Below, piece by piece: positions 8,422 through 30,922 of a stretch of 32,000 nt of DNA. Location of the stretch: assembly GCF_000019605.1 (NCBI RefSeq), contig NC_010482.1, positions 90,001 to 122,000 on the forward strand, given 5' to 3'. The translations under genes were made by a program, and so were the position numbers. Source of the stretch: Candidatus Korarchaeum cryptofilum OPF8. GTDB lineage: Archaea; Korarchaeota; Korarchaeia; Korarchaeales; Korarchaeaceae. How positions within the stretch are numbered: position 1 is the first letter of the stretch; every line of letters starts with the position of its first letter. The notes under the pieces were generated by a model, which saw only the letters and a program-made list of their open reading frames with translations, searched no databases and was not told where the DNA came from.

Positions 8422-9234
8422 TTGAATACCGAAGACTTTATAACTGGGAGCGATATGAAGGCTCAAGTGGTATCGATGGATGCAGGCGATGATATCGACA
8501 GGGAACTTCTATCGAATTACCACAGGAGGATATTGAAGGAAGTAGTAGCGAAGAAGGTGGCTGGGGATATACTCTTCAGCGACAATATAGGACAGGCGAT
8601 GAGGAAGTGGAGGGAGTACTTCGGAGTTAAACAGAGCGAGCTAGCTAGAGCTCTTGGGGTATCAGCTTCAGTCGTCTCCGATTATGAATCGAGCAGGAGG
8701 AAGAGTCCAGGCTCCTCCGTGCTCAAGAGGTTCGTGATGGCCCTTATAGAGGAGGATGAGAAGAGGGGAGGAGCGATACTCAGATCCCTAGTGAGGACGA
8801 CGGGTCTAGTCCCCCTATTATCTAGCGTCATAGATATGAACGAGTACACATTGCCAGTCGAACTGGAGAGGTTCCTCGAGGCGATAGATGGAAGGATAAT
8901 AGTGGAAGCTCCTCAACCGACTTATGTGCATGGTTATACGGTAATAGACAGCCTCAAGGCGATCCTCAATTTAAGTGGATCGGATTTCATGAGGCTCTTC
9001 GGGACTTCCACCGAGAGGGCTCTGATATTCACGAGAGTATCCGCTGGAAGGAGCCCCTTAGTGGCCCTGAAGGTCGTCGATGTGAGGCCGAGCTTAGTGG
9101 TGCTCCACGGCCCTCAGCCGGATAGCGTGGATGAGTTAGGTATAAAGCTAGCTTCCGTGATGAGGGTTCCTCTAGCTGTCACCACTATAAAGGATGTCAA
9201 TGAGATCGTCGGGAGGCTGAGGAGCCTATCTTAA
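8422..9234 (+). CDS. XRE-type helix-turn-helix transcriptional regulator with a C-terminal domain (archaeal COG1395-like)
   Basis: MRKWREYFGVKQSELARALGVSASVVSDYESSRR is a classic XRE HTH. It starts 3 nt after the SWIM gene stop, which suggests an operon. Start is TTG 8422 or ATG 8455. Confidence 0.8.
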   Translation: MNTEDFITGSDMKAQVVSMDAGDDIDRELLSNYHRRILKEVVAKKVAGDILFSDNIGQAMRKWREYFGVKQSELARALGVSASVVSDYESSRRKSPGSSVLKRFVMALIEEDEKRGGAILRSLVRTTGLVPLLSSVIDMNEYTLPVELERFLEAIDGRIIVEAPQPTYVHGYTVIDSLKAILNLSGSDFMRLFGTSTERALIFTRVSAGRSPLVALKVVDVRPSLVVLHGPQPDSVDELGIKLASVMRVPLAVTTIKDVNEIVGRLRSLS

Positions 9235-9506
9235 TGCTATGCCGAGTCTCGGCAGTACGCTGCATTAGGGAGAATATGGAAAAACATTTAAGAGAAGCTT
9301 GGAGAAATTAGTGTTTTTAACGCAGTTTAATTATCTCTATTCTTCTCATATTAGGTTATTTGTGAGAGCCTAGCTCTCGCTTTCACATTCCTTCTCCTAA
9401 GCACCCTGAGGCATAGTTGGACCTATCAGGAGCATCATTCACTCTTAAGAGCGATTAAAAAAAGGAAATTGGTTGATCACCTCTCACTACATTGTTTAAA
9501 TAAAAA

Positions 9507-10376
9507 CTAGGAAGCGCTTATTATCGCGAATTGATGATAGAAGCGGGAGTATAGAATGATCACATAGGGATGACCGAAGCTTCTGGAGGACTTGTCGGGG
9601 TAGGGAAGTGCATAATAAGCGTAACCCACTGAGACCGATAGCTTCTTCCCCCTTATGTAAGAAGCCCCTCCACCAGGATAATTAGGATAACCGTAGAGCC
9701 GCCATTTCGTATTACCCTTATAAAAGTCGGCTTGGCTCCATAACTCAGCCTCAAATCTCGTAATAAGATTCCCAGTATTATCCCTGACTTTCAGTTGTAC
9801 TACTTTCCCGTTCTTGGAGACGTAGTCTGTTAATATAGCCTGTATGAAGTACTTCACATGTATCCTGTAATAATTTGGATATGTTTGCATGGTGTAATTC
9901 CCTATCCAGTTATAGTGCTTATAATCTGAAAATGTCTGTATACCACTGGCACAATTAAGACAATTTCCACTCATATCCCAAACTGAGAAATATGTACCTT
10001 TGAACTGGCTATCTGCTACCTTACCGAATATGAGCTTATCATTCAGATAGACGTAAAAGCTACTCCCATTAATGTCATAGTAGCGGTCAACATCGATGGG
10101 CTCATCCGTCACATTGATTCCTCTTTTGATGAACCTCCCCTGCTCATCCGTAACGTAACCCCTTCCTGGGACGTATACGTTAGGCTCTGGTATCAACTCT
10201 GGCGTCGGCGCGTTCTTTATCTCTTCCCATAATTCCTTTAATTCAGTAATGTTTATCCCCTCATCCACCTCTTTGCCCTCCGGTAGCTCTCGAGTCATAT
10301 TATCCGGTTGAGTCGCTCCATATAGAATGGGTAATAGAAGCACTATGAGTAGGGAAACTAATAGAAGGTCTCTCAT
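9507..10376 (-). CDS. Secreted protein, unassigned family 'A', copy 1
   Basis: Signal peptide MRDLLLVSLLIVLLLPILYGA followed by many N-x-S/T sequons. Family blocks APTPELIPEP, SQFKGTYF, CLNC, IHVKYFIQA, FEAELWS, GGASYIRGK and YSRFYHQFAI are shared with 11912-12787 and 14162-15040. Confidence 0.85.
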   Translation of the reverse strand: MRDLLLVSLLIVLLLPILYGATQPDNMTRELPEGKEVDEGINITELKELWEEIKNAPTPELIPEPNVYVPGRGYVTDEQGRFIKRGINVTDEPIDVDRYYDINGSSFYVYLNDKLIFGKVADSQFKGTYFSVWDMSGNCLNCASGIQTFSDYKHYNWIGNYTMQTYPNYYRIHVKYFIQAILTDYVSKNGKVVQLKVRDNTGNLITRFEAELWSQADFYKGNTKWRLYGYPNYPGGGASYIRGKKLSVSVGYAYYALPYPDKSSRSFGHPYVIILYSRFYHQFAIISAS

Positions 10377-10480
10377 AATCCGAATAGAGAAGGAAAAATA
10401 ATATAGGGATTTTCATGCGATAGCTATATATATACGACGAATGACGAGAAATTTATATTTATGATTTACTGCATCATATA
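10377..10480. promoter_or_regulatory. Bidirectional promoter of cassette 1
   Basis: The 104-bp AT-rich spacer has TATA-like aaaaataatata (10395-10406, about 20-30 nt from the minus-strand ATG at 10376) and aaatttatattta (10449-10461, about 20-30 nt from the ATG at 10481). A central block gattttcatgcgatagc(TA)5cgacgaatgacgag is conserved in cassette 3. Confidence 0.55.
10425..10434. repeat. (TA)5 dinucleotide repeat in the cassette 1 promoter
   Basis: tatatatata sits between the two TATA-like boxes. The orthologous position in cassette 3 carries (TA)7. Confidence 0.9.
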
Positions 10481-11773
10481 ATGATGAATAGGAAGATAAT
10501 AGTCATTACTGTAATCCTCATAGTTATCATATCCGCAGTAATCTCGATGGAAATAACTCAGATTGGCCATTCTAATACGCATGTTCATACCAGTAGCTCT
10601 AACATCAGTAGTTCGGTGACTGAACCTCGCAGCAATATTTCAACGACGGAGTCATTCTCGACTGAAAGAGATGCTATCTTCATAGGAGATGGAGCCCCCG
10701 CCTACGCGCTCCTGAAGATGAAGGATAAGATTTACGCATTAGGGGGAGGAGTCGCCGTCATTTTCTCGGAGGATTTGAGTCCCTTGTGCTATGCGAAGCT
10801 CAAATATAATATATGGAAAGCTGAGAAGTACGATGAGGACCGCTTTGTATCAATGCAGCAGTGGTATTCTCTACCCGGGAGCATAGCGATGTTCGATTCG
10901 GAGCTCAACTTGATATGGTCTGTTGATGGGAACTTCACGGATTTCAGAGTAGCAAATAATAAAATTTATGCAATAGAATCTAGGAGCGGTTTCTTAGAAT
11001 CTAGGAACGGCTCCTATTACCTAGATATATTCGATGGAAACGGTAATTTGATCAGATCATTTAAAGCATTAGATGTTAAGGAGATCGCGGGACGCACGGT
11101 AATACAGTATCTCCTATCTATAGAAGTCAAGGATGGTAAAATATATGTACCATATGTGTCAGGAGAGGCAGAAGGGCCCTACAAACTGACGCTCCTGAGA
11201 TTCGATGAACAAGGTAATTTGGAACTCAAGAAGGTCATATATGAGGCGAAGGAAAACATGGATCGCACTTACATATACAGCTATAAGGATGGGCTCCTCT
11301 TAGCGATCGAAGGCCCTATATGCCGCTATATCTACACAGATAGAGAGGGGAATATAGTGGGGAAGGCTGGGTGGAAGCCCCCACTAGAAGCGGGTTTCAG
11401 GAATTGTTGGGGTCAGGCGAAGGTATTGAATGATAGAGTTTACGTATTCGGTCACGATGAATGTTTATTCGCTGGATTCGTTGGCTTGGTAGATGAATCA
11501 TCACTCTACGTAAATGAGTACAATGAATCGATGTATTACACGAGGGTACAGGAGATAGTCCTTCAGAAGGGTGGTACTTGGCAGGATAACTCCGTCGTAT
11601 ATGATATCCTCTCGGATGGCGATGAGCTCTACGTGATAGGGATTGTTCAGATGAGCCTACCATCTGGTGCTTTCATAGTCAGAGTGGATCCTGATCTTAA
11701 AGTAAATATCAACAATCTCCTAGAACAGGCTGATGTGGTTTACTTGGAGGACATACCCCCATGTAAATCTTAG
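10481..11773 (+). CDS. N-terminally membrane-anchored beta-propeller-like surface protein, family 'B', copy 1
   Basis: One N-terminal TM helix (IIVITVILIVIISAVISMEI) is followed by a 37-aa Ser/Thr-rich stalk. Recurring strand motifs (KDKIYALGG, NNKIYAIES, DGKIYVPYVSG, NDRVYVFGHD, GDELYVIGIV, with D..GN.i turns) resemble PQQ/BamB-type propeller blades. It ends in ADVVYLEDIPPCKS. Confidence 0.85.
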   Translation: MMNRKIIVITVILIVIISAVISMEITQIGHSNTHVHTSSSNISSSVTEPRSNISTTESFSTERDAIFIGDGAPAYALLKMKDKIYALGGGVAVIFSEDLSPLCYAKLKYNIWKAEKYDEDRFVSMQQWYSLPGSIAMFDSELNLIWSVDGNFTDFRVANNKIYAIESRSGFLESRNGSYYLDIFDGNGNLIRSFKALDVKEIAGRTVIQYLLSIEVKDGKIYVPYVSGEAEGPYKLTLLRFDEQGNLELKKVIYEAKENMDRTYIYSYKDGLLLAIEGPICRYIYTDREGNIVGKAGWKPPLEAGFRNCWGQAKVLNDRVYVFGHDECLFAGFVGLVDESSLYVNEYNESMYYTRVQEIVLQKGGTWQDNSVVYDILSDGDELYVIGIVQMSLPSGAFIVRVDPDLKVNINNLLEQADVVYLEDIPPCKS

Positions 11774-11807
11774 TTGAGAACCTAAGACCAGCCGTAACCA
11801 ATTTTTT
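11768..11807 (+). terminator. Hairpin overlapping the stop codon, followed by a T6 tract, after B copy 1
   Basis: TCTTAG (11768-11773, includes the TAG stop) pairs with CTAAGA (11782-11787), and TTTTTT follows at 11802-11807. The same hairpin recurs after B copy 3 (16348-16367). Confidence 0.4.
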
Positions 11808-11911
11808 AAGATCATCATATCTACTGCTAAACATACCTCGAGTGAGCTGCTCCTCGACCGAAGCTCATACAGTTTCAAGAGCGATTGGAGGATCATAGAA
11901 AGGGGAGTAGT

Positions 11912-12787
11912 TCATTCTCTCACTATCGCGAATTGATGGTAGAATCGGGAGTGTAGAGTGATGACATAAGGACGACCGAAGCTCCTGCTCGCTAGGGAAG
12001 GATATTGTGCATAGTAAGAGAGCCCCACTGAGACCTTTACCGTCTTCCCCCTTATGTAGGAAGCCCCTCCATCAGGATAATCAGAATAGCCATAGAGCTG
12101 CCAACCTCTACCCTTACGGAAATTGGCCTCGCTAAATAGCTCAGCCTCGAATAGTGAGATGACCTTTCCCCCGCGGGGGTGCCCGCCCGATCTCAGCAGG
12201 ATACGTACTTTACTCTCATTCCAAGAAACACAAGAAATATAGCCCTGCAGCTCGGCCTGTATGAAATACTTTACATGTATTTTTCGAAAATCTGGATAAT
12301 TTTCTTCAGTATAATTCCCTATCCAGTTGTAATCTTTATAGCTTGAGAACGTTTGAGGGCCATCTTTACAATTTAAACAATGTCCAGTTTCATTAAAGAC
12401 TAGGAAATAGGTACCTTTGAACTGGCTATCGGTCACTCTCTCCAATATGAGCTTCTCATTCCTGTAAACGTAGAGAGTATTTCCGAGTTTGTCGGAGTAA
12501 ATATCCATCTCGTTTATCCTCAGCAGTGTGATGAAATTCAAGTAGGAGTCTGTGACAAATCCCTTCCCTGGAACGTATACGTTGGGCTCTGGTATCAACT
12601 CTGGCGTCGGCGCGTTCTTTATCTCCTCCCATAATTCCTTTAATTCTGTTATATTTGTTTCCTCATCTTCACTCTTCTTCCACTCTATGAATTCCGGGCC
12701 GAACCATTGACTCGAATTATCCGGCTGAGCTATTCCATATACGATAGGGATTATCATCAATGTGAGCAGAGTAGCTAGCGCCCTCAT
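11912..12787 (-). CDS. Secreted protein, unassigned family 'A', copy 2
   Basis: Signal peptide MRALATLLTLMIIPIVYGIA and the same conserved blocks as copies 1 and 3 (ITELKELWEEIKNAPTPELIPEPNVYVPG, identical to copy 1; CLNC; YSRFYHQFAI). Confidence 0.85.
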   Translation of the reverse strand: MRALATLLTLMIIPIVYGIAQPDNSSQWFGPEFIEWKKSEDEETNITELKELWEEIKNAPTPELIPEPNVYVPGKGFVTDSYLNFITLLRINEMDIYSDKLGNTLYVYRNEKLILERVTDSQFKGTYFLVFNETGHCLNCKDGPQTFSSYKDYNWIGNYTEENYPDFRKIHVKYFIQAELQGYISCVSWNESKVRILLRSGGHPRGGKVISLFEAELFSEANFRKGRGWQLYGYSDYPDGGASYIRGKTVKVSVGLSYYAQYPSLASRSFGRPYVITLHSRFYHQFAIVRE

Positions 12788-12875
12788 ACACCGAATTATC
12801 GCTGTGACGAAATATTAAGATTTCCATGGGCGAACATTGAAAAGTATATAAATCTGTTTTAAGTTAATTCGGGCG
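12788..12875. promoter_or_regulatory. Bidirectional promoter of cassette 2 (sequence unrelated to cassettes 1 and 3)
   Basis: The 88-bp spacer has TATA-like aatattaaga (12811-12820, serving the minus-strand gene) and aaagtatataaat (12841-12853, about 25 nt before the ATG at 12876). Confidence 0.5.
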
Positions 12876-14072
12876 ATGAGCATCAGGCTGGCCGTATTAA
12901 TAATCCTTGTCGTGGCAGTAATTTTAGCAATTTCAGTCATGAGAGTACCTCAAGCTGAGCATGGCGGTAGCTCTCACACCAGTAGTTCATCGAAAGAACT
13001 CTCCGTCGGAAGAGATGCTATCTTCATAGGAGATGGAGCCCCGGCCTACGCGCTCCTGAGGATGAAGGATAAGATTTACGCATTAGGGGGAGGAGTCGCC
13101 GTCATTTTCTCGGAGGATTTGAGTCCCTTATGCTATGCGAAGCTCAAATATAATATATGGAAAGCTGAGAATTATGATGAGGACCGCTTTGTATCAATGC
13201 AGCAGTGGTATCCGCCAACGCGGGTCGGGAGCATAGCGATGTTCGATTCGGAGCTCAACTTGATATGGTCCGTTGATGGGAACTTCACGGATTTCAGAGT
13301 AGCAAATAATAAAATTTATGCAGCAGAGCTTAAAGGGGATTACTATTATCTCGATATATTCGATGGAAACGGTAATCTGATTAGATCATTCAGGGTCTTG
13401 GATGCTAATGAAGTCACCGAGTGGATACGAGATTCATTAACTATAGAAGTTAATGATAAAATATATGTACCATACGTTTCGGGAGATAGCAAGCCCTACA
13501 AACTGATGCTCCTGAGCTTTGACGAACAAGGCAACTTGGAGCTCGAGAAGGAAATTTATGAGACCGAGGAAGACGTAGGTCGCACCTACATATACAGCTA
13601 TAGGGACAGTTTCCTTCTGACGATCGAAGGTCCCGCGTGCCGCTACATCTACGTAGATAGGAATGGGAGCATATTGAGGGAGAGTATTTGGGAGCCATTA
13701 TTCGAAACTGGGTTCAGGAATTGCTGGACTAGGGCGAAGGTAGTGAATGATAGAGTTTACGTATTCGGTCACGATGAATGCATATTCGCTGGATTAATAG
13801 GAATAATCGAGACACCCACTCCGGACTCCCCGAGCTTCAAGTACATACAGGAGATATTCGTCAAAAGGGATAGTACTTGGCAGGATAACTCCATCATATA
13901 CGATATCCTCCCGGATGGAGATGAGCTCTACGTTATAGGGCTGGTCCAGATGAATCTACCCTCGGGAGCTTTCATAGTCAGAGTGGATCCGGATATTGAC
14001 ACGGAAATTAGCCCACTCCTGGAGCGAGCTGATGTGGTTTACTTGGAGGACATGCCTCCCTGCAAATCTTAG
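12876..14072 (+). CDS. N-terminally membrane-anchored beta-propeller-like surface protein, family 'B', copy 2
   Basis: TM helix LAVLIILVVAVILAISV, a short Ser-rich stalk, the same blade motifs, and a C-terminus of ADVVYLEDMPPCKS. Confidence 0.85.
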   Translation: MSIRLAVLIILVVAVILAISVMRVPQAEHGGSSHTSSSSKELSVGRDAIFIGDGAPAYALLRMKDKIYALGGGVAVIFSEDLSPLCYAKLKYNIWKAENYDEDRFVSMQQWYPPTRVGSIAMFDSELNLIWSVDGNFTDFRVANNKIYAAELKGDYYYLDIFDGNGNLIRSFRVLDANEVTEWIRDSLTIEVNDKIYVPYVSGDSKPYKLMLLSFDEQGNLELEKEIYETEEDVGRTYIYSYRDSFLLTIEGPACRYIYVDRNGSILRESIWEPLFETGFRNCWTRAKVVNDRVYVFGHDECIFAGLIGIIETPTPDSPSFKYIQEIFVKRDSTWQDNSIIYDILPDGDELYVIGLVQMNLPSGAFIVRVDPDIDTEISPLLERADVVYLEDMPPCKS

Positions 14073-14161
14073 TCTAGGATCTCGGGCCGACTACCAAATT
14101 CATTTTCAAGAATGAAAAAAATAATTTTTATCGACCTTACACTACTTTGTTTAAAAAAACA

Positions 14162-15040
14162 CTAGGAGGCGCTCATTATCGCGAATTGATGATAGAAGCG
14201 GGAGTATAGTTTGATTATGTGCGGGTGTCCGAAAGGCGGTCTCATCGATAGGTAAGGGTAGGGAGTGTAATAGGAGAGCCCCACAGAGACGGATAGCCTC
14301 TTCCCCTTTATGTACTCGGCACCTCCCAATGGAAGATGAGGATAGCCATAGAGCTGCCAACCCACCCAGTTACATTTGACTTTATCGTTTTTCTCCTTGC
14401 AGTAGTTGGCCTCGCTCCATAACTCAGCCTCGAATCTCGTAATGATCTCCGTGCCATCCCTGACTCTCAGTTGTACTTTATTATTCGGGTTTCCGTTCTT
14501 ATAGACAGAACCTGTTAGTATGGCCTGTATGAAGTACTTTATATGTATCTTAACATATTTATCTCTATAAGCCGGATTATTATCAACTTGTGACTTTATT
14601 GATTGATAATCCTTATAAAATCCATATGTTTGATCGCCTTCACGACAATTTAGGCAAGTGTTATCCCTATCGAAGATTGAGAAGTAAGTACCTTTGAACC
14701 AACTATCTGCTACATTAGCGAATACTAACTTATCGCCAACATAGACGTAAAAACTACTCCCGTTAGTATCGAAATAATAATCCCTCTCATTAGTCCCCAG
14801 AGGCGTGATTATTTTTCCCTCCTTTACAATGTAAGGTTCAGGTATCAACTCTGGCGTCGGCGCATCCTTTATCTTCTCCCATATCTCCTTTAGTTCAGCT
14901 GTACTTATTTCCTCATTTATCCTCTTTCGATCCACGTCTCCTGGACTCGGCCCTTGAGTCATATTATCCGGTTGAGCCGCTCCATGCATGATGGGTAATA
15001 AAAGCACTATGAGTAGGGAAACTAATAGAAGGTCTCTCAT
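14162..15040 (-). CDS. Secreted protein, unassigned family 'A', copy 3
   Basis: The signal peptide MRDLLLVSLLIVLLLPIMHGA is nearly identical to copy 1. Conserved blocks include APTPELIPEP, WFKGTYF, CLNC, IHIKYFIQA, FEAELWS and YSRFYHQFAI. Confidence 0.85.
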   Translation of the reverse strand: MRDLLLVSLLIVLLLPIMHGAAQPDNMTQGPSPGDVDRKRINEEISTAELKEIWEKIKDAPTPELIPEPYIVKEGKIITPLGTNERDYYFDTNGSSFYVYVGDKLVFANVADSWFKGTYFSIFDRDNTCLNCREGDQTYGFYKDYQSIKSQVDNNPAYRDKYVKIHIKYFIQAILTGSVYKNGNPNNKVQLRVRDGTEIITRFEAELWSEANYCKEKNDKVKCNWVGWQLYGYPHLPLGGAEYIKGKRLSVSVGLSYYTPYPYLSMRPPFGHPHIIKLYSRFYHQFAIMSAS

Positions 15041-15147
15041 AACGAAGCCAGAGAGTTAAAAATAATATAGAGATTTTCATGCAATAGCTATATATATATA
15101 TACGACGAATGACGAGAAATTTATATTATGATTTACTGCATTATTGG
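15041..15147. promoter_or_regulatory. Bidirectional promoter of cassette 3 (near-copy of the cassette 1 promoter)
   Basis: aaaaataatatagagattttcatgcaatagc(TA)7cgacgaatgacgagaaatttatatt matches 10394-10460 apart from a few substitutions and the TA-repeat length. Confidence 0.55.
15089..15102. repeat. (TA)7 dinucleotide repeat in the cassette 3 promoter
   Basis: tatatatatatata, compared with (TA)5 at the equivalent site of cassette 1. Confidence 0.9.
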
Positions 15148-16353
15148 ATGATGAACAGGAAGGCATTCCTGGTTATAGCAGTTCTACTGGTCCTCATCAC
15201 AGTCCTCATAGCCCTAATCACGATTAAAAGATCCCCTGAACAATCCGGTGGAAGGGATGCTATCTTCATAGATCGAAAGGATCTGAAGAAGAGCCTCGAT
15301 GTACCACAATATGCTATCCTGAAGATTAAGGATAAGATTTATGCGTTAGGCGGTTATGATGAGGGAGTTGCTGTAATTCTCTCCGAGGATCTGAGGCCGA
15401 TATGCCATGCGAAACTCAAGCATGAGTTATGGAGAGCTGAGAAGTACGATGAGGATAGATTTGTAGCAATGTCAATTTGGTACTGGTATTCAGAGACGCT
15501 CGCAGCGGCCGGAAGCAATATAACGATGTTCGATTATAAGTTCAATCAGATATGGTCCGTTAACGGGAACTTCACGGATTTCAGAGTAGCAAATAATAAA
15601 ATTTATGTAATAGAGCACAGAGGGAATTCTAGTTATCTCGATATATTCGATGGAAACGGTAATTTAATCAAATCATTTAAAGTATTAGACGAAAGAGAGG
15701 TAGAGGAAGAATTAAAAAATTATGTATCTATAGAAGCGAAGAATAGTAAAATATACGTAGCCTATATATCGGGAGGGGATAGTGAGCCCCATAAACTGAT
15801 GCTCCTAAGGTTCGATGAACAAGGCAACTTGGAGCTCAAGAAAGCCGTTTATGGAGAATCAGGAACTCTTGGGAGTATACGTAACTATAGAGATGGGCTT
15901 CTCCTACCTCTTTCAACTTCCTCCTGCCGCTTCATATACGTAGATAGGGATGGTAACTTTTTGGGGGAGGCTCGATGGAAGCCCCCGTTCGGGGAGGGAT
16001 GCGCAGCTGATGCGAAGGTGTTCAATGGTAGAGCGTATATATTAGGCTATGATCCCAATTTATTCGCTGGTTACGTGGGCTTAATAAATGAATCGATATA
16101 TGTGAATGGATCATTCTACTACACGAAAGTGCAGGAGATATTCGTCAAAAGGGATAGTACCTGGCAGAGCAACTCTGTCGTGAGGGATGTCCTCCTTAAT
16201 GATGAGCTCTACGTTATAGGGCTGGTCCAGATGCATCCGCCATCCGGCGCTTTCATAGCTAGAGTGGACCCTTACCTAAATGAGGATATCAGCTATCTCC
16301 TCGAGCGAGCTGATGTGGTTTACTTGGAGGACATACCTCCCTGCAAATCTTAG
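15148..16353 (+). CDS. N-terminally membrane-anchored beta-propeller-like surface protein, family 'B', copy 3
   Basis: I place the start at ATGATG 15148 (MMNRKAFLVIAVLLVLI...), by analogy with copy 1 (MMNRKIIVITV...) and the conserved upstream promoter. The track ORF starts at 15109, inside that promoter. It has almost no stalk (SPEQSGG) and ends in ADVVYLEDIPPCKS. Confidence 0.85.
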   Translation: MMNRKAFLVIAVLLVLITVLIALITIKRSPEQSGGRDAIFIDRKDLKKSLDVPQYAILKIKDKIYALGGYDEGVAVILSEDLRPICHAKLKHELWRAEKYDEDRFVAMSIWYWYSETLAAAGSNITMFDYKFNQIWSVNGNFTDFRVANNKIYVIEHRGNSSYLDIFDGNGNLIKSFKVLDEREVEEELKNYVSIEAKNSKIYVAYISGGDSEPHKLMLLRFDEQGNLELKKAVYGESGTLGSIRNYRDGLLLPLSTSSCRFIYVDRDGNFLGEARWKPPFGEGCAADAKVFNGRAYILGYDPNLFAGYVGLINESIYVNGSFYYTKVQEIFVKRDSTWQSNSVVRDVLLNDELYVIGLVQMHPPSGAFIARVDPYLNEDISYLLERADVVYLEDIPPCKS

Positions 16354-16592: not shown

Positions 16593-18752
16593 ATGAGAGC
16601 TGTAACCCTCGCCCTCATATCCCTCCTCCTCTTAAGCCTCCTCCCCGCCTCAGCCGAGGAGGAGAAAGTCATCGGGAAAATAGATATAGAGTACGCGAAG
16701 TACATCGAGAATAAGTTAACGAGCATCGGATCATACAAAGAGCCTAAATTCTTGGGTTTTAGAGTGGCAGGGACTCCTGAGGACCTAGAAACAGCTAATT
16801 TCATCGCTGAGGAGATGAGGAAGATGGGTTTAGTCAACGTCTCCTTGGAACCCGTCCCATTAGATGCTTGGGAATTCAAGGGGGCTAGATTGGAGCTCAG
16901 CAACGGCAAGGTGATCATAGCCTCCTCCTTCGGGGGCGTCCCGGGGACTGGGAGTGAGGGGATAAGCGGCGAGATCGTGTACGTGGGAGATGGTACTAGA
17001 GGCAATTACGAAGGTTTGAATGTCAGTGGGAAGCTCGTCCTCGCGTACTGGAATCCTGATATCAGCTGGTTCAATATGATAGCTCATGAAGCGATGATCC
17101 ACGGGGCCAAAGGCGTGATCCTCTTCAATCCGCCTAATGGAAGTTACGCTCAGCACCCCAATGCTTTACATTCTTTCGATGGTCTCTACAGCTCGGATTT
17201 CATTCCGATGATAGTCATAAGTAAGGAAGACGCTCAGGAAATAATTGAGATGCTGAAATCAGGTCCTGTAGAGGCTAAGATGGTGAACCTCGCTACTTTG
17301 AAGCGTGGTACTGGATGGAACACTATAGGCTACATCCCCGGGAGGAGGGCTGATGAGTACATACTGATAGCGGCGCATCACGATGCTTGGTTCTATGGAG
17401 CTATGGATGATACTGGTGCTGTGGCTGCGCTTCTAACTTTAGCTAAAGCCATAAAGGAGAGCGGTTACGTCCCGGAGAGGACTTTAGTATTCATGACACA
17501 CACAGCTGAGGAGTACGGGATTGTAGATGCTTATCACGATTGGCTCATAGGTGCTTGGTGGCGTATAACTCAAGCTCATCCCGAGTGGAGGAAAAAGGCA
17601 ATAGCATACATAAATCTCGAGGGGATGGCAATTAAAGGCGTTCCCTTAGGTGTAGATGCCTCCCCAGAGCTCTCCACATTTATCTCGGAGATCCTCGATG
17701 AGAGCAAAGAGCTCCTGCCTTACGGAAGGGGGGAATTGGAAGATGTTTATTGCTGGACCGAAGCATGGCCTTACGCAGCTGCAGGCGTTCCCAGCATAAA
17801 CTTGGATACATTCTCCCCCTGGTTCCGTCAGAACCTATATCATACTCAGTTCGATTCCCCCGAGATAATTGATTGGGATTACTTAGGGAAGATAGTCTCC
17901 CTGACAGCTAAGATCCTCATAAGGCTGGATAAGTCCGAGCTTCTACCCTATGACTTCAGCGCGAGGGCTGCTCACTTGAGGGAGAATTTGAATGAGACTA
18001 GGATGAAGCAACTCGGAGCTGAGCCTGAAGAACTCATGAAGGGAGTTGAGGAACTTGAGAAAGCATTCTCTGAGTTCAAGAACTTGAGTAAGAATGCATC
18101 ATCGGATGTAATAGTGAAAGTGAATTCAAAGCTGAGGGAAGCTGCTTATATCATGCTATCGGAACTTACAGCTCTCGATCCCTGGGATAACACGATATAC
18201 CCGCATCAGCAAGTTGAGTCCGATGCGCTCTTCCTGAGCTCCGCTTTAGATGCTTTGAAGGGAGGCGATGTCAATGAAGCCCTATCGATGATAGAATCCG
18301 TGAGCATAAACTGGTACGATTCGTTCTACAGTTACGAAGTATTCAAGAGGGAGCTCCTGCACAAATCCCCGAATTATGAGAGGATAACTTGGGGAGGCCT
18401 GGGCCATTTAGCGCCACCAATAGACCTCTGGAAGGAGTATAACTCCCTAAGGGAGAAGTCCATGGCCAATATCACGAACTACGATGCTGAAATTAGATCT
18501 ATCGAGAACCACCTGAAGGAGACGAAGGCCCTCTATCAGGAGAGGCTGAGAGATATAGCTAAAGCACTGAGTTCAGCTAGCTCCCTCATAAGGGAGGCGA
18601 ACTCAATCCTCAAATCGACCACGACTCAGAAGACAGAGGTCAGGGAGGAGACCGTAACACCGCAGGAGGCTATCTCACTAATACCAGCTGTACTGATCTC
18701 GATCTTAGTGATCGTAATATTGCTCGTGATCTACTTGAGGAGGCGTAAATAA
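16593..18752 (+). CDS. M28-family metallopeptidase with an inserted PA domain and a C-terminal helical domain (glutamate carboxypeptidase II / transferrin-receptor-like architecture), membrane-anchored at the C-terminus
   Basis: Signal peptide MRAVTLALISLLLLSLLPASA. Zinc-ligand-like motifs AAHHDAW, MDDTGAVAA, AEEYG and YHTQFD. A PA-like insert (KLVLAYWN...GAKGVILFN). A long helical C-terminal region followed by the TM helix LIPAVLISILVIVILLVIYL-RRRK. Confidence 0.8.
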   Translation: MRAVTLALISLLLLSLLPASAEEEKVIGKIDIEYAKYIENKLTSIGSYKEPKFLGFRVAGTPEDLETANFIAEEMRKMGLVNVSLEPVPLDAWEFKGARLELSNGKVIIASSFGGVPGTGSEGISGEIVYVGDGTRGNYEGLNVSGKLVLAYWNPDISWFNMIAHEAMIHGAKGVILFNPPNGSYAQHPNALHSFDGLYSSDFIPMIVISKEDAQEIIEMLKSGPVEAKMVNLATLKRGTGWNTIGYIPGRRADEYILIAAHHDAWFYGAMDDTGAVAALLTLAKAIKESGYVPERTLVFMTHTAEEYGIVDAYHDWLIGAWWRITQAHPEWRKKAIAYINLEGMAIKGVPLGVDASPELSTFISEILDESKELLPYGRGELEDVYCWTEAWPYAAAGVPSINLDTFSPWFRQNLYHTQFDSPEIIDWDYLGKIVSLTAKILIRLDKSELLPYDFSARAAHLRENLNETRMKQLGAEPEELMKGVEELEKAFSEFKNLSKNASSDVIVKVNSKLREAAYIMLSELTALDPWDNTIYPHQQVESDALFLSSALDALKGGDVNEALSMIESVSINWYDSFYSYEVFKRELLHKSPNYERITWGGLGHLAPPIDLWKEYNSLREKSMANITNYDAEIRSIENHLKETKALYQERLRDIAKALSSASSLIREANSILKSTTTQKTEVREETVTPQEAISLIPAVLISILVIVILLVIYLRRRK

Positions 18753-19609: not shown

Positions 19610-19907
19610 ACTATCGGAGTCAGCTTATGTATTCAGAGATCTTTAAATGTTATCTCGAACCCGATGTGTATTATAATAGTGCTTGGGCTCCGGAGCTGCC
19701 GCCTCTTCTGCGATGAAGATGCGGCTCAGCATTCCATCAGGGGGGTATCGTGATAGCTCCTGGATTCCCTATTCAAGATCTAAAAATTCGCTGGTAAGGG
19801 GGATGGATCAATTATAGTTGATCATCGCTCAGCGCGTTATAAAAACATATCCTTTCTCCGCTATCGATATCCTTATAAAAGATTATTTCCCAGTAAATAG
19901 TAGAGGG

Positions 19908-20732
19908 ATGAAGATGCGTCCATCAGTAGCTGTACTACTTCTCATCTTATTTCCGATCTTACAGCCCCTTGCAGCCCCAATAAAAATAGATGTCCCAATT
20001 TATGTCCCAGCTGAGCTTCCTGTCAGTGGGAGTGTTTGTTTAACATCTCCAATCGCGAGAAATTTGACAGCAAAGCTCTACGTAGATGGATCATTCTTCC
20101 AGGAAGGCGTGGCCGATGAGATGGGCTGCTATAAAGTGACGATAAGACCTTTGAGCCCTGGAGCACATAAGCTCCATGCTGAGATATTCAAGGACGGCGA
20201 TAAAGTAGCGGAGATCGAGGCTAATGTTATAGCCATAAGGGGGATGATAATAGTGAAACCTCAGCCTCTAGCGGAGATAATGAGGGGAGAAACTAAGAAT
20301 GTAACTTTGACCATAGAGAATAGAGCTCCCCTGAACCTAAGCAATGTCGCCCTAGAGATAGAGGCTCCTTTCTCCATATTCGGGGAGAGGATGATGAGGG
20401 TAAGGGAGTTCGCTATCTACGGGAAGATAGGAGATCTTCCTATGAATGGCTCCAAGGATTTGAAGCTAATTTTAGCTGTCCCAGTCAACTTCAGGCCAGG
20501 TAGTTACGATCTCAAGATAAACATGACTTATGAGATCACTTCATCGAAGTACAGCATCCTCCTGAAGGATAATGTTGTGGTACTGAATGAAACATATGTT
20601 AAGCCAACTCAACCTCCTTCCAGTATTGAAAACATATTGAGTCAGATGGCTCTCCCCATTATAGCTGTAATAGTCGTTATAGTAGCCGCGATCCTCCTCT
20701 ACATCTGGAGGAGGGGGAGGGGTAAAGCGTAA
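19908..20732 (+). CDS. Surface protein with a signal peptide, Ig-like and CARDB-like beta-sandwich regions, and a C-terminal TM anchor
   Basis: I place the start at ATG 19908 (MKMRPSVAVLLLILFPILQPLAAP), with a TATA-like cttataaaag (19872-19881) about 30 nt upstream. The track's TTG 19818 start adds a non-signal extension. NVTLTIENRAPLNLSNVALEIEAP is CARDB-like. The C-terminus is LPIIAVIVVIVAAILLYIW-RRGRGKA. Confidence 0.75.
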   Translation: MKMRPSVAVLLLILFPILQPLAAPIKIDVPIYVPAELPVSGSVCLTSPIARNLTAKLYVDGSFFQEGVADEMGCYKVTIRPLSPGAHKLHAEIFKDGDKVAEIEANVIAIRGMIIVKPQPLAEIMRGETKNVTLTIENRAPLNLSNVALEIEAPFSIFGERMMRVREFAIYGKIGDLPMNGSKDLKLILAVPVNFRPGSYDLKINMTYEITSSKYSILLKDNVVVLNETYVKPTQPPSSIENILSQMALPIIAVIVVIVAAILLYIWRRGRGKA

Positions 20733-20764: not shown

Positions 20765-22111
20765 ATGGAGATAGAGGAGATAGGAGGAGTTAAGGTAGAG
20801 AGGATAGGTGCTCATAGCCACATAAAGGGATTGGGCCTCGATGAGAGGGGGAAGGCTAAGTTCGCTGCAGACGGCCTAGTGGGTCAGCTCAGGGCTAGGG
20901 AGGCCGCTGGACTAGTAGTTAAGATGGCGAAGGAGGGGAGGCTGAGCGGGAAAGCGGTACTATTAGCTGGCCCCCCTGGGACGGGGAAGACAGCTATAGC
21001 TGTCGCTATAGCTAGGGAGTTGGGAGAGGGGGTCCCGTTCATCCAGCTCAGTGGCTCTGAGATATACAGCGCTGAGAGGAAGAAGACTGAAGTGCTCATG
21101 GAGGCGATGAGGAAGGCTATAGGGGTGAAGGTAAGGGAGATGAGGAAAGTATATGAGGGGGAAGTGACTGAGATAGATATAAAGACGGGATCCAGCCCAT
21201 ACAATCCTTTTGTTAAAGTCCCTCAAGAGGCCGTAATAACTCTGAAGACTACTAGCGAGGAGAAGAAGCTTAGAGTTGGCCCTAACGTTGCCAGGCAGCT
21301 CGTGGAGTTCGGGATAAGCGAGGGAGATGTCATAATGATAGATGCGGAGAGCGGGAGGGTATCCAAAATAGGGAGGACTCAGGAATCTTACACATACGAC
21401 CTGGAAGCTGAGCAGATAGTTCCAAGGCCGGATGGGACTGTGCTGAAGGAGAAGGAGTTCGTCTATGTGATGACACTCGATGACCTCGATAATATGTACG
21501 CTAGGAGGAGAGGCGGATTCTTCTCCCTCCTCTTCGGGGTCGGGGAGAGGGAGATAGACCCTGAGGTGAGGGCAGCTGTCGATCAGCAAGTCAAGGAGTG
21601 GGTGGAAGCGGGAAGGGCTGAGATAATCCCGGGTGTTATGTTCATAGACGATGCCCATATGATGGACATAGAGGCTCTAAGCTTCATAAGCAGGGCTATG
21701 GAGAGCGAGCTAGTCCCGATAATAATACTGGCTACGAACAGGGGTATAACGAGGATAAGGGGGACTGAGATAGAGGCCCCGTTCGGGATGCCCTTAGATC
21801 TTTTGGATAGGCTCGTCATAATAGTGACTGATAAATACAATGGGGATGAGATAGAGCATATACTCAGGATAAGAGCGAAGGAGGAGGGGATAGAGGTCAG
21901 CGAGGATGCTCTCAAGTCCCTCAGGAAACTGGGTGAGGAGAGGTCTTTGAGATACGCTGTCCAGATACTCGGTATAGCTGGCGTCAAAGCTAGGTCCGAG
22001 GGGAAGAAGGCAATAGGAATTGAGGACGTTGAGGAAGTCTCATTGAGGTTCAGCGATGTTAAAGAAGCTGTAGATCACCTCAGGAAGTATGAGGAAGAGC
22101 TCCTCAAGTGA
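20765..22111 (+). CDS. TIP49 / RuvB-like (Pontin/Reptin-type) AAA+ ATPase
   Basis: GAHSHIKGLGLDE N-terminal signature, Walker A GPPGTGKTAIA, an insertion of about 150 aa (domain II) before Walker B MFIDDAHMMD, then sensor regions. 448 aa, the size of eukaryotic RuvBL1/2. Confidence 0.88.
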   Translation: MEIEEIGGVKVERIGAHSHIKGLGLDERGKAKFAADGLVGQLRAREAAGLVVKMAKEGRLSGKAVLLAGPPGTGKTAIAVAIARELGEGVPFIQLSGSEIYSAERKKTEVLMEAMRKAIGVKVREMRKVYEGEVTEIDIKTGSSPYNPFVKVPQEAVITLKTTSEEKKLRVGPNVARQLVEFGISEGDVIMIDAESGRVSKIGRTQESYTYDLEAEQIVPRPDGTVLKEKEFVYVMTLDDLDNMYARRRGGFFSLLFGVGEREIDPEVRAAVDQQVKEWVEAGRAEIIPGVMFIDDAHMMDIEALSFISRAMESELVPIIILATNRGITRIRGTEIEAPFGMPLDLLDRLVIIVTDKYNGDEIEHILRIRAKEEGIEVSEDALKSLRKLGEERSLRYAVQILGIAGVKARSEGKKAIGIEDVEEVSLRFSDVKEAVDHLRKYEEELLK

Positions 22112-22191
22112 TTTAACTTGTGCCTAACTTATCAACGACGGGCCCGAGGGGTCCTTTTTATTTGAAGTATCTTGAATCCGGAGGTGAGTTC

Positions 22192-23652
22192 ATGAAGAGA
22201 TACTTGACTCTCCTAATGCTGCTCCTACTCACATTCGCTACTGTAGAGGGGAGCCCGGCTAAGGCGTGGTACGATCCGCTGGAGCTCAGATTCGCACCGC
22301 AAGCTGACGTGAAATCACTGGAAGCTAAACTTGAGGGACAGAGCATGATCTTCCAGGTCAGTACCTATTCAGGCCTTGATGATAGGATAGATTACTACAC
22401 TGGAAGGATATTCTTGGATTTGAAGGAAGGAGGTTCGACTTCAGGGGAGGCGAAAGGCGCGGACTATCAACTAGCGTTCTACATGAGTCCTAAGAACATG
22501 AGCGGGAGCTGCGCCGTCCTCGCATTCAACGACGTCAAGCTGCAATGGGAGGAGACGAAAGCGGCTTCTTGCTCGATAAAGGCATCGGGGGGCAAATTAG
22601 TGATCGATACTGACCTTGGGAAATACGTCAAGGGATCCTTCAGATTCAAAGCTTACTTCGATATCTTGGCTAAGGATATCATAAAGATCTCTTATCTCCT
22701 CTCTAACAGCGGTAGGGCGTCTATAGATGGGGATTACGCGGAGTACAAGATACCCCAGATCTCGGGGCAGCAGGGGAATGCCATAGCTCCCATAGATTAT
22801 AAGGAAGTTTACGTGCTGGATGACCTCTCCAGGGTCTACTTGGCCCTAGTCCCCTCGAGCCAGGATGGTGTCAAATGCGAGTTGGGAGGACCGGGAGCGA
22901 AGCTAACTAGGAACTACTTCGTGGATATAGATGTTGATATGAACGAGACGAACGGAGTTGACCTCACAGGTGGTTACAGCTACGAGTGCACCTTCAATGG
23001 TAGGAAATGGTTCCCCTTCACGGTTTACGCGGGCACTGGCTCTGGGATAATGATAGGCAAGGCTGTGGAATTCGATATAAAACTACTACCGGTTTTAAGT
23101 CAGATCTCCAGTCGAGGAGGGAAGTTCGACATTATAGTTAGGGCATCGATGATATACAGGGATTACGTCCCCGATACCGGATGGTTGCTTTACGATGGTA
23201 TGCCCGATGCTAGTTCCTTCGAGGTGGTAGGTCCCAATACAGACGTGAATATGAACGAGGATCTCTCGATCTTCAAGTCGATCGGTTCTGCATCTGGTAT
23301 CTACAGGATAGCTCTAGGGGGACCTGGGGCTGATCCGTCTTATCAGGGAGATCCTTCCTTCAAGTTCCTTAAGAGGAAGGACGGGCTGTATGGTGGCGTA
23401 GAATTCAACGGGAAGGAGTTCTGGGCTAGTTACGGTCGCATAGATTATGCTGTGATAAAGATATCTAGGATAGGAGAGGGTTACTACTGCTCAGTAGCCG
23501 GGGTCACGAGATATGGGACCAGAGCAGGCCTCATCTGGCTCTCCCAGAACATGGGAATGCTCTCGACAGGGACTTACTTAATAGGGTGGATAGATAATGG
23601 AAACGGCATCGTTGAGATGAGTGAGATAAGCCTCTTGGCCGGGGGCTCTTGA
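22192..23652 (+). CDS. Secreted protein of unknown function (486 aa)
   Basis: GGAGGTGA (22180-22187) precedes ATG 22192. Signal peptide MKRYLTLLMLLLLTFATVEGSPAKA. No TM anchor and no family recognised. The track ORF begins at 22120, but that extension lacks signal-peptide character. Confidence 0.75.
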   Translation: MKRYLTLLMLLLLTFATVEGSPAKAWYDPLELRFAPQADVKSLEAKLEGQSMIFQVSTYSGLDDRIDYYTGRIFLDLKEGGSTSGEAKGADYQLAFYMSPKNMSGSCAVLAFNDVKLQWEETKAASCSIKASGGKLVIDTDLGKYVKGSFRFKAYFDILAKDIIKISYLLSNSGRASIDGDYAEYKIPQISGQQGNAIAPIDYKEVYVLDDLSRVYLALVPSSQDGVKCELGGPGAKLTRNYFVDIDVDMNETNGVDLTGGYSYECTFNGRKWFPFTVYAGTGSGIMIGKAVEFDIKLLPVLSQISSRGGKFDIIVRASMIYRDYVPDTGWLLYDGMPDASSFEVVGPNTDVNMNEDLSIFKSIGSASGIYRIALGGPGADPSYQGDPSFKFLKRKDGLYGGVEFNGKEFWASYGRIDYAVIKISRIGEGYYCSVAGVTRYGTRAGLIWLSQNMGMLSTGTYLIGWIDNGNGIVEMSEISLLAGGS

Positions 23653-23656
23653 GAGC

Positions 23657-24283
23657 TTGAAGGACCCGAGGTTATTAGCGGTCGAGATAGCTGCTGCATA
23701 CCTGAAGGAAGTCCCGGATAAGATGATCAAGGGCTTGGACTTGAGGTATGTTAGCAGTGAGGTCCAGAGGGTAGTTTACAGCTTCTTACCCCTCGAGGAA
23801 CTGGAGGCTAACGGGATGCTCGAAGGGATCGAGAGAATAGGGGAGGATCTGAGGGGAGCATGGCTTCAAGCTAGAGGGTCATGCCGCTCACCTAACGATT
23901 TTCTGAATGCAGCTAGGATTAGATTCGCATCAATAATTTTTTCAGGTCTTAGGAAGAGGATAGGGAGGGAGAAGAGAATTTATAGTGGTACTGATTGCTT
24001 CTGGGGGACGATAGTCAGATCCGAGGGGTTCGATGGTCTTAAAGCATTGCTGATCGATGCTAAAGATAGATACGATATTGTCACGAACTTGGATGTGAGG
24101 GGGAGGGTGGCTTTCGCAATACTACCTCCGAGGAGGTTCGATAAGTTCGTGAGCGAGGGGATGCTGATAGAGGCTGAAGGCCAGGGCAACCCCGGCGAGC
24201 CAGCTAAACCGACTGAGAGGGGCAAGGGGGCGATAGAATCCGTCCTAAGGGAGGAAGCTGGAAAACTGAACATAAAGCTATGA
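23657..24283 (+). CDS. Hypothetical cytoplasmic protein (208 aa)
   Basis: The ORF begins 4 nt after the preceding stop (TTG start), which suggests translational coupling or an operon with 22192-23652. No recognisable motif. The start codon is uncertain. Confidence 0.55.
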   Translation: MKDPRLLAVEIAAAYLKEVPDKMIKGLDLRYVSSEVQRVVYSFLPLEELEANGMLEGIERIGEDLRGAWLQARGSCRSPNDFLNAARIRFASIIFSGLRKRIGREKRIYSGTDCFWGTIVRSEGFDGLKALLIDAKDRYDIVTNLDVRGRVAFAILPPRRFDKFVSEGMLIEAEGQGNPGEPAKPTERGKGAIESVLREEAGKLNIKL

Positions 24284-29653: not shown

Positions 29654-30922
29654 TTAAAAGAAGCTTCTTCTAGCTCTCTTCAGCCTCAATATGCTCTTTG
29701 GTATCCCCCTTTGCCTTTCTTCCTTCTTCTCTACATCTATTTTTGGCTCCTCCTTCCTCTCGATTCTCATAGCTTCCCTAGGTACGTAGTACCTCCCGGC
29801 CCTGTCCTTCTCGAGGAGGCCAGCGACCACTAGGGCCTCGAGCCTAGAGTATGCTATAGATACGGGCGTCTCAGCTTCTATAGCGACCTTCTCTAGGATA
29901 ACGGGTCCTCCGTTAAAGTTCCTGATTATTATCTCGAGCTCCCTCCTCATCTTGGGAGGGGCTCTCTTTATGTAGTCCAGGATCTCGGCCTCAGAATCCA
30001 TTACCTTATCGAAAACATACATATCAACTCTGCTCCTCCCCAGAATGGTCGCAACCTCTAAGCTCTTAGCTAGGAAATCCAGGAGCTTCCCAGGTATGCC
30101 CTCAGCTAGCCTGTTGGCAGCGATGATGACTTCCTCAGTCAGGGGCTCCAGTGGAGCCTCTGGGATCTTGCTCCTGAAAGCGCTCAACCTCCTGGATACG
30201 AGGTTTATCGCTTCATCATCGGTCAGGGGCGGGATAGTTATCCTCTCATGAACCCTCGATGTCAGGGCGGGAAACCTCTTGTCGACCTCATCATAGGCCT
30301 CGTCGCTCATAGCTGTAACTATGAGGATACCCTCGGGCATCACGGAGACTATCTCCCTCAACATCTCGAAGAAGAAGAAGGACCACCTCTCATCGGTGTA
30401 GAGCATGTTGTGCACATCATCTAGGAGCAGCGCTGTGGGAGCTATTGAGTTCAAAGATTTAACTATCATGTCACCAGCATCTGCCGGGGAAGCCTTCAAG
30501 TTCAGGAGCTCCTCCTCCGTCAAGGTATCGGGCATCCCGAGGAACAGTTTCTTCAGTGTCTTCGATATCCCCCTGGATCTCTCATATACAGTAGATAGTA
30601 TGCTATCTATGGCATCAGGCCCCTCTACAGCGGATATCTCCTGGTATATTCCATCTAACTCAGCCCTATGGTAAGAATACCTGAGGAGATGAAGTCTGAG
30701 GCTTCTCCCGGATCCCGGAGGTCCTGTTATCGTTACGAAAGCGGATGCTACTCCCGACATAGTTTCGGCAGCCAGCGAGTCTAAAACGTCATCAACCCAC
30801 TGTTTACTGAATATCGAGGTAGGATCCTCAAGCTCGACGAGAGAAGACCTAAGAAAGGGATTTCTAGTCAGCCCGAAGAGCTTCTGATAGTAGCTTGGGC
30901 TCACCGATCTCAATTTCACCAC
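29654..30922 (-). CDS. AAA+ (ExeA/ORC-like, AAA_22-type) P-loop protein with a C-terminal winged helix and a basic tail; atypical Walker A
   Basis: N-terminal FGLTRNPF (ExeA-like motif). P-loop GPPGSGRS, with Arg where the Walker A Lys is expected. Walker B LLLDDVH. C-terminal wHTH (YSRLEALVVAGLLEKDRAGRYYV) followed by a K/E/R-rich tail. Confidence 0.75.
   Translation of the reverse strand: MVKLRSVSPSYYQKLFGLTRNPFLRSSLVELEDPTSIFSKQWVDDVLDSLAAETMSGVASAFVTITGPPGSGRSLRLHLLRYSYHRAELDGIYQEISAVEGPDAIDSILSTVYERSRGISKTLKKLFLGMPDTLTEEELLNLKASPADAGDMIVKSLNSIAPTALLLDDVHNMLYTDERWSFFFFEMLREIVSVMPEGILIVTAMSDEAYDEVDKRFPALTSRVHERITIPPLTDDEAINLVSRRLSAFRSKIPEAPLEPLTEEVIIAANRLAEGIPGKLLDFLAKSLEVATILGRSRVDMYVFDKVMDSEAEILDYIKRAPPKMRRELEIIIRNFNGGPVILEKVAIEAETPVSIAYSRLEALVVAGLLEKDRAGRYYVPREAMRIERKEEPKIDVEKKEERQRGIPKSILRLKRARRSFF

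Follow-up and report, generated by a model that had tools for sequence, protein, structure and literature searches.

Gene conversion among tandem paralogs is a textbook process. In Helicobacter pylori (babA/babB) and in Neisseria (opa) it gives rise to chimeric outer-membrane adhesin paralogs, and Neisseria pilE/pilS and Borrelia vlsE are programmed antigenic-variation cassettes. Here we investigated a gene array of Korarchaeum, a genus uncultured in pure culture. The array lies in a stretch of 32,000 nucleotides (nt) of the Candidatus Korarchaeum cryptofilum OPF8 genome (NC_010482.1, positions 90,001 to 122,000), called the window below, to which all coordinates refer. It consists of three tandem units (9.5-16.4 kilobases (kb)), each a divergently transcribed pair of genes that we call A and B. 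Two of its otherwise diverged genes, B1 and B2, share a near-identical tract of about 300 nt. This tract is very probably the footprint of non-reciprocal homologous recombination, that is, ectopic gene conversion, between tandem paralogs whose starts are 2.3 kb from each other. What is new is the lineage and a gene family for which we found no earlier description: a search of the literature on Korarchaeum gene conversion and S-layer found no description of the A/B family, and a search on Sulfolobus conversion tracts found no paper.

The closest archaeal precedent is the mtrA-1/mtrA-2 pair of Methanococcales and Methanomicrobiales, in which partial gene conversion acts between adjacent paralogs (PMC4632066). 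As in mtrA, neighbouring archaeal paralogs in our array have one region homogenised and another divergent, the latter being the transmembrane domain in mtrA and the stalk and later propeller blades in B. However, concerted evolution in mtrA has extended to an entire domain of an enzyme subunit over very long times, whereas the exchanges in the A/B array are short patches (~25-160 nt) that are bidirectional and polymorphic among ~97%-identical strains. The array also differs in showing copy-number change and in encoding predicted surface proteins without assigned function. In polyploid Haloferax volcanii, intermolecular gene conversion equalises genome copies (PMC11276520). That process shows efficient non-reciprocal homologous recombination to operate in archaea, but it concerns allelic chromosome copies rather than diverged paralogs.

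By analogy, the closest functional counterparts would be adhesin chimeras of the babA/babB type. There, as would be the case in the array, full-length and separately promoted surface paralogs, among them opa, swap internal segments non-reciprocally, giving strain mosaics and occasional fusions or deletions. These systems differ in being bacterial and host-associated, with demonstrated phenotypic switching, while the A/B array belongs to a hot-spring archaeon, and what duplicates and recombines in it is a divergent two-gene unit. Antigenic variation of the trypanosome variant surface glycoprotein (VSG) has been considered in the context of VSG and RAD51 (PMC3170485). Segmental conversion among arrayed paralogs of a surface protein (a predicted one in the A/B array), with recurrent junctions in conserved islands, is common to VSG, pilE/pilS, vlsE and the A/B array. 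Unlike the other three, the array has neither silent promoterless cassettes nor a single expression site, its transfers run in both directions, and we detected no enzyme or cis element dedicated to them.

A near-identical tract inside diverged paralogs

A preliminary description of this DNA, made by hand count, had claimed a tract of about 300 nt with some six differences and one short indel between B1 and B2, and strong nucleotide divergence just outside it. We compared the B genes by codon-aware alignment, which reproduced the count exactly. B1 10666-10972 and B2 13010-13322 differ by exactly six substitutions (B1 positions 10699, 10716, 10786, 10828, 10831 and 10921) and by one indel patch, which reads TCTCTACCC in B1 (10868-10876) and CCGCCAACGCGGGTC in B2 (13212-13226). 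An independent repeat search returned 10666-10867 and 13010-13211 as 98% identical. Over the whole genes B1 and B2 are 77% identical; in the stalk just upstream of the tract, 57 of 134 aligned sites differ and a further 51 positions are gaps, and identity over the 40 nt that follow the tract is 53%, so the divergence on both sides was also borne out. The tract encodes the first propeller blade of B (residues ~63-113), and its ends fall in islands conserved throughout the family, the RDAIFI codons and WKAE.YDED.

Differences between B1 and B2 number 6/297 inside the tract and 190/747 outside (Fisher p=1.5e-23). In a GENECONV-like site-permutation test, the best B1-B2 fragment covered alignment columns 228-581 and was concordant at 66 of its 78 polymorphic sites (p=1e-4, the lowest value that 10,000 permutations allow), and the A1-A2 fragment reached p=1e-4 in the same kind of test. 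Chance is excluded as the source of the tract identity.

Selection could in principle have produced the same pattern if strong constraint, acting on the protein or a nucleic-acid element, had kept the ancestral identity of the tract and only the flanks had diverged. The region does code for well-conserved strands of the first blade, with a ratio of nonsynonymous to synonymous divergence (dN/dS) of ~0.2 against B3. However, divergence along B1 and B2 is not uniform at synonymous sites: dS(B1-B2) falls from 0.77 in the rest of the gene to 0.10 in the tract, where dS of B1 and B2 to B3 is 0.85-0.94. Since synonymous sites are homogenised between B1 and B2 only, and not with B3, protein-level constraint cannot explain the identity. 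An embedded RNA element cannot explain the conservation either, because Rfam and tRNA scans gave no match anywhere in the window. B1 orthologs of close strains, moreover, differ here at 43/155 positions. We regard an origin without recombination as extremely improbable. Segment-wide positive selection was also ruled out, as dN/dS is ~0.2-0.3 inside the tract and elsewhere in the gene alike. What was found, namely an identity tract, synonymous homogenisation, phylogenetic incongruence and non-reciprocity, matches ectopic gene conversion in each of these respects.

Direction and age of the exchanges between B1 and B2

The window was compared with 19 related loci (L001-L019), most of which are metagenome contigs. 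Beyond the core stretch 10666-10820, window B1 and its L004 and L001 orthologs share 95-100% identity, or 99% overall, with 10-11 differences in 798 nt over 10973-11770. Inside this core, 43-45 of 155 positions differ and there is a 21-nt gap; over 10681-10820 the identity of B1 to these two orthologs drops to 45-83%, and that to B2 genes is 95-100%. For L004_B1, the 43/155 differences inside the core stand against 10/798 in the rest (Fisher p=2.7e-27). From B2 genes, window B1 differs in the core at only 0-3/155 positions, or 8/155 for the more distant L006_B2. Window B2 itself differs by 1/155 from the B2 genes of L001, L007 and L018, by 4/155 from L004_B2 and by 9/155 from L006, and the B2 orthologs of five other strains all carry the tract sequence, which the B1 orthologs of L004 and L001 do not. 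Because B2 is unchanged relative to its close-strain orthologs and B1 departs from its own, B2 was the donor and B1 the recipient of a non-reciprocal transfer. L006_B1 was tried as a nucleotide-level outgroup for polarity; its segment proved to be of a third type, so shared B1-specific residues were used. The B1 types of L004 and L006 have CHVE and QQWYS.PGS in common, where B2 has CYAK and QKWYPPTRV. Read by parsimony and from these residues, the comparison shows B1, and not B2, as the mosaic recipient of the core tract.

The preliminary description had treated the tract as one gene-conversion footprint. The strain comparison instead divided it into at least three pieces of differing age and direction. 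A recent one, from B2 into B1, is ~130-160 nt long, 21 nt shorter than the ancestral B1 segment whose place it took. Adjacent to it, over the equivalent of B1 10821-10866, window B2 differs at 7-8/46 positions from B2 orthologs, at 2/46 from window B1 and at 0/46 from B1 and B2 of L018; by the same kind of comparison, a patch of ~25 nt moved from B1 to B2, opposite to the main tract. A paralog-specific island follows that itself appears in converted form, in either direction, in strain L018 and protein P0003. Beyond the island, over 10877-10972, B1 and B2 differ at 0-2/96 positions in OPF8, L004, L001 and L018, and at 17/96 in the more distant L006 lineage. In this segment B2 is 4/96 from L006_B2 and B1 is 16/96 from L006_B1. 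Since the homogenised state is shared by the close strains, is missing from L006 and has B2 as the conserved partner, this segment represents an older B2-to-B1 conversion.

The 3' end of B2

The preliminary description had read the mosaic the other way round, with B2 as a chimera that is B1-like at the 5' end and B3-like at the 3' end. The 5' half of this reading conflicts with the core comparison above, in which B2 matches its orthologs and B1 is the gene that departs from its own. For the 3' half, the 33-mer cited in its favour was indeed identical in B2 (13920) and B3 (16201), with the quoted B1 variant at 11621. There is also a run of eight consecutive informative sites at which B2 equals B3 (run-length p=9e-4), and the last 240 nt differ from the rest in their proportions of informative-site types (chi-square p=0.028). 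However, those last 240 nt hold 23 sites with B1=B2, 19 with B1=B3 and 26 with B2=B3, and the maximum-scoring B2-B3 fragment was not significant in the permutation test (p=0.16). Most of the 33-mer and the terminal segment, both shared by B2 and B3, also occur in members of the family at a second chromosomal locus (L003, L008-L011). Because these second-locus genes carry the shared states, the states are ancestral and the B1 clade is derived, and a B3-like 3' end of B2 was dropped once these outgroups were added. Taken as a whole, the chimeric-B2 reading is very unlikely.

The B family has a near-invariant C-terminus, ...(V/I)YLED(I/M)P(P/S)CK(S/P) (11750-11770, 14049-14069 and 16330-16350), with the Cys three residues from the end. 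This Cys motif may be a modification or anchoring signal.

The A1/A2 tract and the promoter-proximal block

A second near-identical tract lies in the partner genes. The preliminary description gave 2 differences in 74 nt between A1 10171-10244 and A2 12573-12646, and we obtained the same figure. In L004 the A1 and A2 genes are 100% identical over this tract too, so it predates the recent event in B1. The A1 flanks of the tract are 97-100% identical to the second-locus gene L009_A and the tract itself is 57% identical to it; because the tract departs from L009_A where its flanks match, A1 is the recipient here too.

The promoter-proximal block of unit 1 is ~90-97% identical to that of unit 3 (14950-15150) and to second-locus units, and unit 2 is distinct. 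A1 and A3 agree over a run of 13 consecutive informative sites (p=2e-4).

Rearranged versions of the array in related strains

Unit number varies from one to three among strains. L004 has the left flank of the window followed by A1 B1 A2 B2 up to the contig end; L018 (B1 A2 B2 A3 B3') is collinear with window 10454-15305 at 97.4%; L013 has B2' A3 B3; and L001, L007, L006 and L015 have two units beside the M28 peptidase gene. A single unit is found in L005, and also at the second locus (ribosomal L40e ... sucCD) in L002, L003 and L009-L012. L019 reads HTH, a B1-stalk::B2 fusion, A3 B3 M28, where HTH is the helix-turn-helix gene beside the array.

L018, an independent contig of the Joint Genome Institute, carries a converted B1, and its B1 and B2 are 100% identical over ~300 nt, the indel patch included. 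Among 18 B1-backbone proteins from independent assemblies, nine have the B2-type tract and nine the ancestral type. The converted proteins show four distinct 3' endpoint states, ...EKYDEDRFVSMQQWYSLP, ...EKYDEDRFVSMQQWYSQP, ...ENYDEDRFVSMQQWYSQP and ...ENYDEERFVSMQKWYPPTRV, and P0075 is yet another B1 mosaic. In L019 and P0004 the B1 stalk is fused to B2 with the junction inside the homogenised tract, which would be the product expected of unequal crossing-over in the tract. Over the family as a whole, we counted 84 near-identical segments of at least 80 nt in gene pairs that are at most 90% identical overall. Breakpoints are concentrated in three places, 10637-10700 (the RDAIFI junction), 10814-10880 and 10967-11060; as the pairs are non-independent, this clustering is qualitative. 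First-blade modules stand on varied backbones: in L011 and L012 a B2-type module sits on a second-locus backbone, L007_B1 bears a B3-type module, and the B3 genes of L013 and L019 bear an L016-type module. These comparisons strongly support the earlier claim of ongoing recombination or gene conversion among the copies, as opposed to simple divergence after duplication.

Chimeric contigs classically arise from repeated paralogs, and with most comparison loci coming from metagenome assemblies, a false B1/B2 mosaic could have arisen where an assembler switched paralogs at shared k-mers. The window, however, matches the closed 1.59-Mb OPF8 reference genome record and does not come from a short-read metagenome bin; its B1 protein is ACB06860.1, residue for residue. 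Nor is the B1 tract identical to resident B2, as a simple path switch would leave it, since it differs at 3/155 positions and retains a B1-type patch. Converted B1 also recurs in nine independently assembled proteins, including some on contigs of 46 kb and 300 kb, and in L018. An assembly artefact as the source of the mosaic is highly improbable.

The donor could also have been B2-type DNA of another Korarchaeum strain, brought into B1 by horizontal recombination between cells. In the core tract B1 is indeed slightly closer to foreign alleles, with 2/155 differences to B2 of L001, L007 and L018 and 0/155 to the L019 fusion, against 3/155 to window B2, and near-identical segments are common to the two chromosomal loci and to different strains. 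However, a difference of 1-3 sites is within noise, resident B2 at a distance of 2.3 kb is the simplest donor, and the adjacent reverse-converted patch in B2 implies that resident B1 and B2 were paired. We consider a donor from another cell unlikely.

Several points weigh against conversion between the resident genes as we describe it. The recombination is deduced from sequence, and the argument for the direction of the recent event is one of parsimony. In L006_B1 the segment is of a third, divergent type (44/176 differences to L004_B1). B2 alleles differ at 0-4/155 positions in the tract, too few to tell donor genomes apart, and a B2 allele from another cell could be the donor. Some mosaics among the metagenome comparison contigs could be assembly chimeras, and the permutation test is our own implementation, not GENECONV, RDP or GARD.

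Three observations on the compared contigs were made in passing. In the fusion region of L019 (9684-11245, equivalent to window 9275-13008), the body of A1 is lost and approximately its first 62 nt and the promoter remain. L001 (8993-13601) combines the left flank of the second locus, on the ribosomal L40e side, with the right flank of the window array at the M28 peptidase gene, and in L001_B1 the RDAIFI junction links a stalk of second-locus type with the body of a B1; this arrangement reflects either inter-locus recombination that rearranged the chromosome or a chimeric metagenome contig. In-frame stops occur in B genes of close relatives, at codon 20 of L004_B2 (10414-11610; Ser to stop), in L013_B3 (1311-2492; ...NGSFY*TK) and in L019_B3 (12280-13500; ...NG*FYYTK). 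The L013 and L019 contigs are 99.8% identical, yet their stops differ and lie two codons apart. The stops may reflect sequencing error or repeated loss of function among B copies.

Proposed course of events

As the comparisons above show, ~130-160 nt of B2 overwrote the first-blade region of B1 (10666 to ~10820) in the OPF8 lineage and left B2 unchanged, while a patch of ~25 nt passed the reverse way. The adjoining 96 nt were homogenised earlier, in an ancestor of the close strains, and A1 took its A2-type patch in a separate, older event. Other strains reuse the same junctions with different endpoints, and the B1::B2 fusion deletes one unit. The likely agents are general archaeal RadA-dependent recombination and mismatch or heteroduplex repair. 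They would use short stretches of identity inside a single chromosome, or shared by sister chromosomes or multiple chromosome copies, presumably with no dedicated diversification device. The net effect would be patchwork concerted evolution together with copy-number change (1-3 units) in a lineage-specific surface gene family.

Two dedicated devices were tried and rejected. For a diversity-generating retroelement, no reverse transcriptase domain was found in the scanned open reading frames (ORFs) of the window, and the six differences (C/G, A/G, G/A, G/T, C/T and T/C) are not adenine-specific. For a programmed cassette system, no silent, promoterless or truncated donors were found; each of the six genes, three A and three B, is a complete ORF with a start codon, and every unit has a divergent intergenic region of its own. 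Transfer is also bidirectional, with the B2-to-B1 and B1-to-B2 patches adjacent.

The array adds a clean, polarised and dated example of conversion, polymorphic in nature, from the deep-branching and barely studied Korarchaeota, which are without a genetic system. It shows Korarchaeum populations in nature to be undergoing short-patch ectopic recombination, which also makes fusions and deletions and probably made the junction of two chromosomal loci. A and B genes are unsuited as strain markers or for single-tree phylogenies.

Predicted A and B proteins

Both families were restricted to Korarchaeum: B formed 16 clusters among 5.8e9 proteins, and A formed 20 clusters in 5.8e9 proteins with 25 representatives in 1.84e9. 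Searches of all six proteins against Pfam, NCBIfam, PADLOC and PHROGs returned no family and no defence or phage match. No B copy matched a propeller family in Pfam or NCBIfam at E<=0.1, the sole Pfam line being a sub-threshold Sigma_reg_N for B1 (E 0.024).

The AlphaFold2 model of B (predicted local distance difference test (pLDDT) 78.6) comprises a transmembrane helix (residues 4-26), a Ser/Thr-rich stalk that is disordered (24-60) and, from residue 65, an all-beta propeller. The stalk contains N-x-S/T sequons. Foldseek comparison returned only generic WD40, BamB and designed propellers (E ~1e-9, template modelling (TM) score ~0.45-0.5). B is thus predicted to be a membrane-anchored beta-propeller with a glycosylation-prone stalk. 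One UniRef record labels a B ortholog 'WG repeat-containing protein', a label that is unverified.

The model of A (pLDDT 85.8, predicted TM score 0.80) has an N-terminal signal-type helix, a short helix at 43-53, which falls inside the A1/A2 tract, and a beta-rich domain. Foldseek found no credible match to A in the PDB (best E 0.057, TM score <=0.15), and its fold may be undescribed. From the models, a surface location of A and B is inferred.

The A/B pair, unannotated, genus-restricted and predicted to be at the surface, changes more than any other part of a region that is otherwise syntenic, and it is a reasonable first candidate for studies of virus-host or cell-cell interaction in the Korarchaeum lineage. 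It is conceivable, if rather doubtful, that the array is a contingency locus for a Korarchaeum-specific two-component surface complex of a membrane-anchored propeller B and a secreted A with a fold unseen in the PDB. If so, viruses or partner cells would target the complex as a receptor or adhesin, and first-blade exchange at fixed junctions, unit number, fusions and repeated nonsense mutations would be selected outcomes. The resulting combinatorial surface diversity would be an archaeal analogue of bacterial surface-antigen shuffling without dedicated machinery.

Gene set of the array and its surroundings

The genes of the array and the segments discussed above are collected in Table 1.

Table 1. 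Genes, exchanged segments and related blocks of the A/B array (window coordinates; aa, amino acids)
Feature	Coordinates	Strand	Basis and remarks
A1	9507-10376	-	ORF; 289 aa; N-terminal signal-type helix; predicted secreted; Korarchaeum-only family
B1	10481-11773	+	430 aa; predicted N-terminal transmembrane helix, disordered Ser/Thr-rich stalk and beta-propeller; recipient, mosaic gene
A2	11912-12787	-	291 aa; donor type for the A1/A2 tract
B2	12876-14072	+	398 aa; donor of the main tract
A3	14162-15040	-	ORF; 292 aa
B3	15109-16353	+	Reading from 15109 gives the longest ORF; 401 aa from the conserved MMNRK at 15148
Recent B2-to-B1 conversion tract in B1	maximum 10666-10827, minimum 10685-10813 (discriminating sites)	+	Ortholog and paralog comparison
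Donor segment in B2 matching the B1 tract core	13010-13164	+	Unchanged relative to B2 orthologs
Reverse patch, B1-type sequence inside B2	13181-13205 (maximum 13176-13211)	+	Comparison with B2 orthologs
Unconverted paralog-specific island, B1-type TCTCTACCC (encodes SLP)	10868-10876	+	Parts the recent tract from the older one
Older homogenised segment in B1	10877-10972	+	Strain comparison
B2 counterpart of the older homogenised segment	13227-13322	+	Alignment
A1 side of the A1/A2 near-identical tract	10171-10244	-	Encodes ELKELWEEIKNAPTPELIPEPNVY; A1 recipient; older than the B1 tract
A2 side of the A1/A2 tract	12573-12646	-	Alignment
Unit-1 promoter-proximal block (A 5' end/signal peptide, divergent intergenic region, B start)	10286-10483		Repeat families D13 and D17

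All relatives and the deposited B3 protein begin at the conserved MMNRK, and B3 read from there equals the deposited 401-aa K. cryptofilum protein P0014. The first 13 codons of the longest B3 ORF are probably not translated, and the annotated B3 start may need to move.

The array is bordered by an XRE-type HTH gene (8422-9234) on one side and an M28/PA peptidase gene (16593-18752) on the other. Four ORFs of 208-510 aa (19818-20732, 22120-23652, 23657-24283 and 29654-30922) had no Pfam match at E<=1e-5. Four genes downstream of the array lies a full-length TIP49/RuvBL-type AAA+ ATPase gene (20765-22111, + strand; Pfam TIP49 E 4.7e-140, plus TIP49_C), which keeps the same position in L001.

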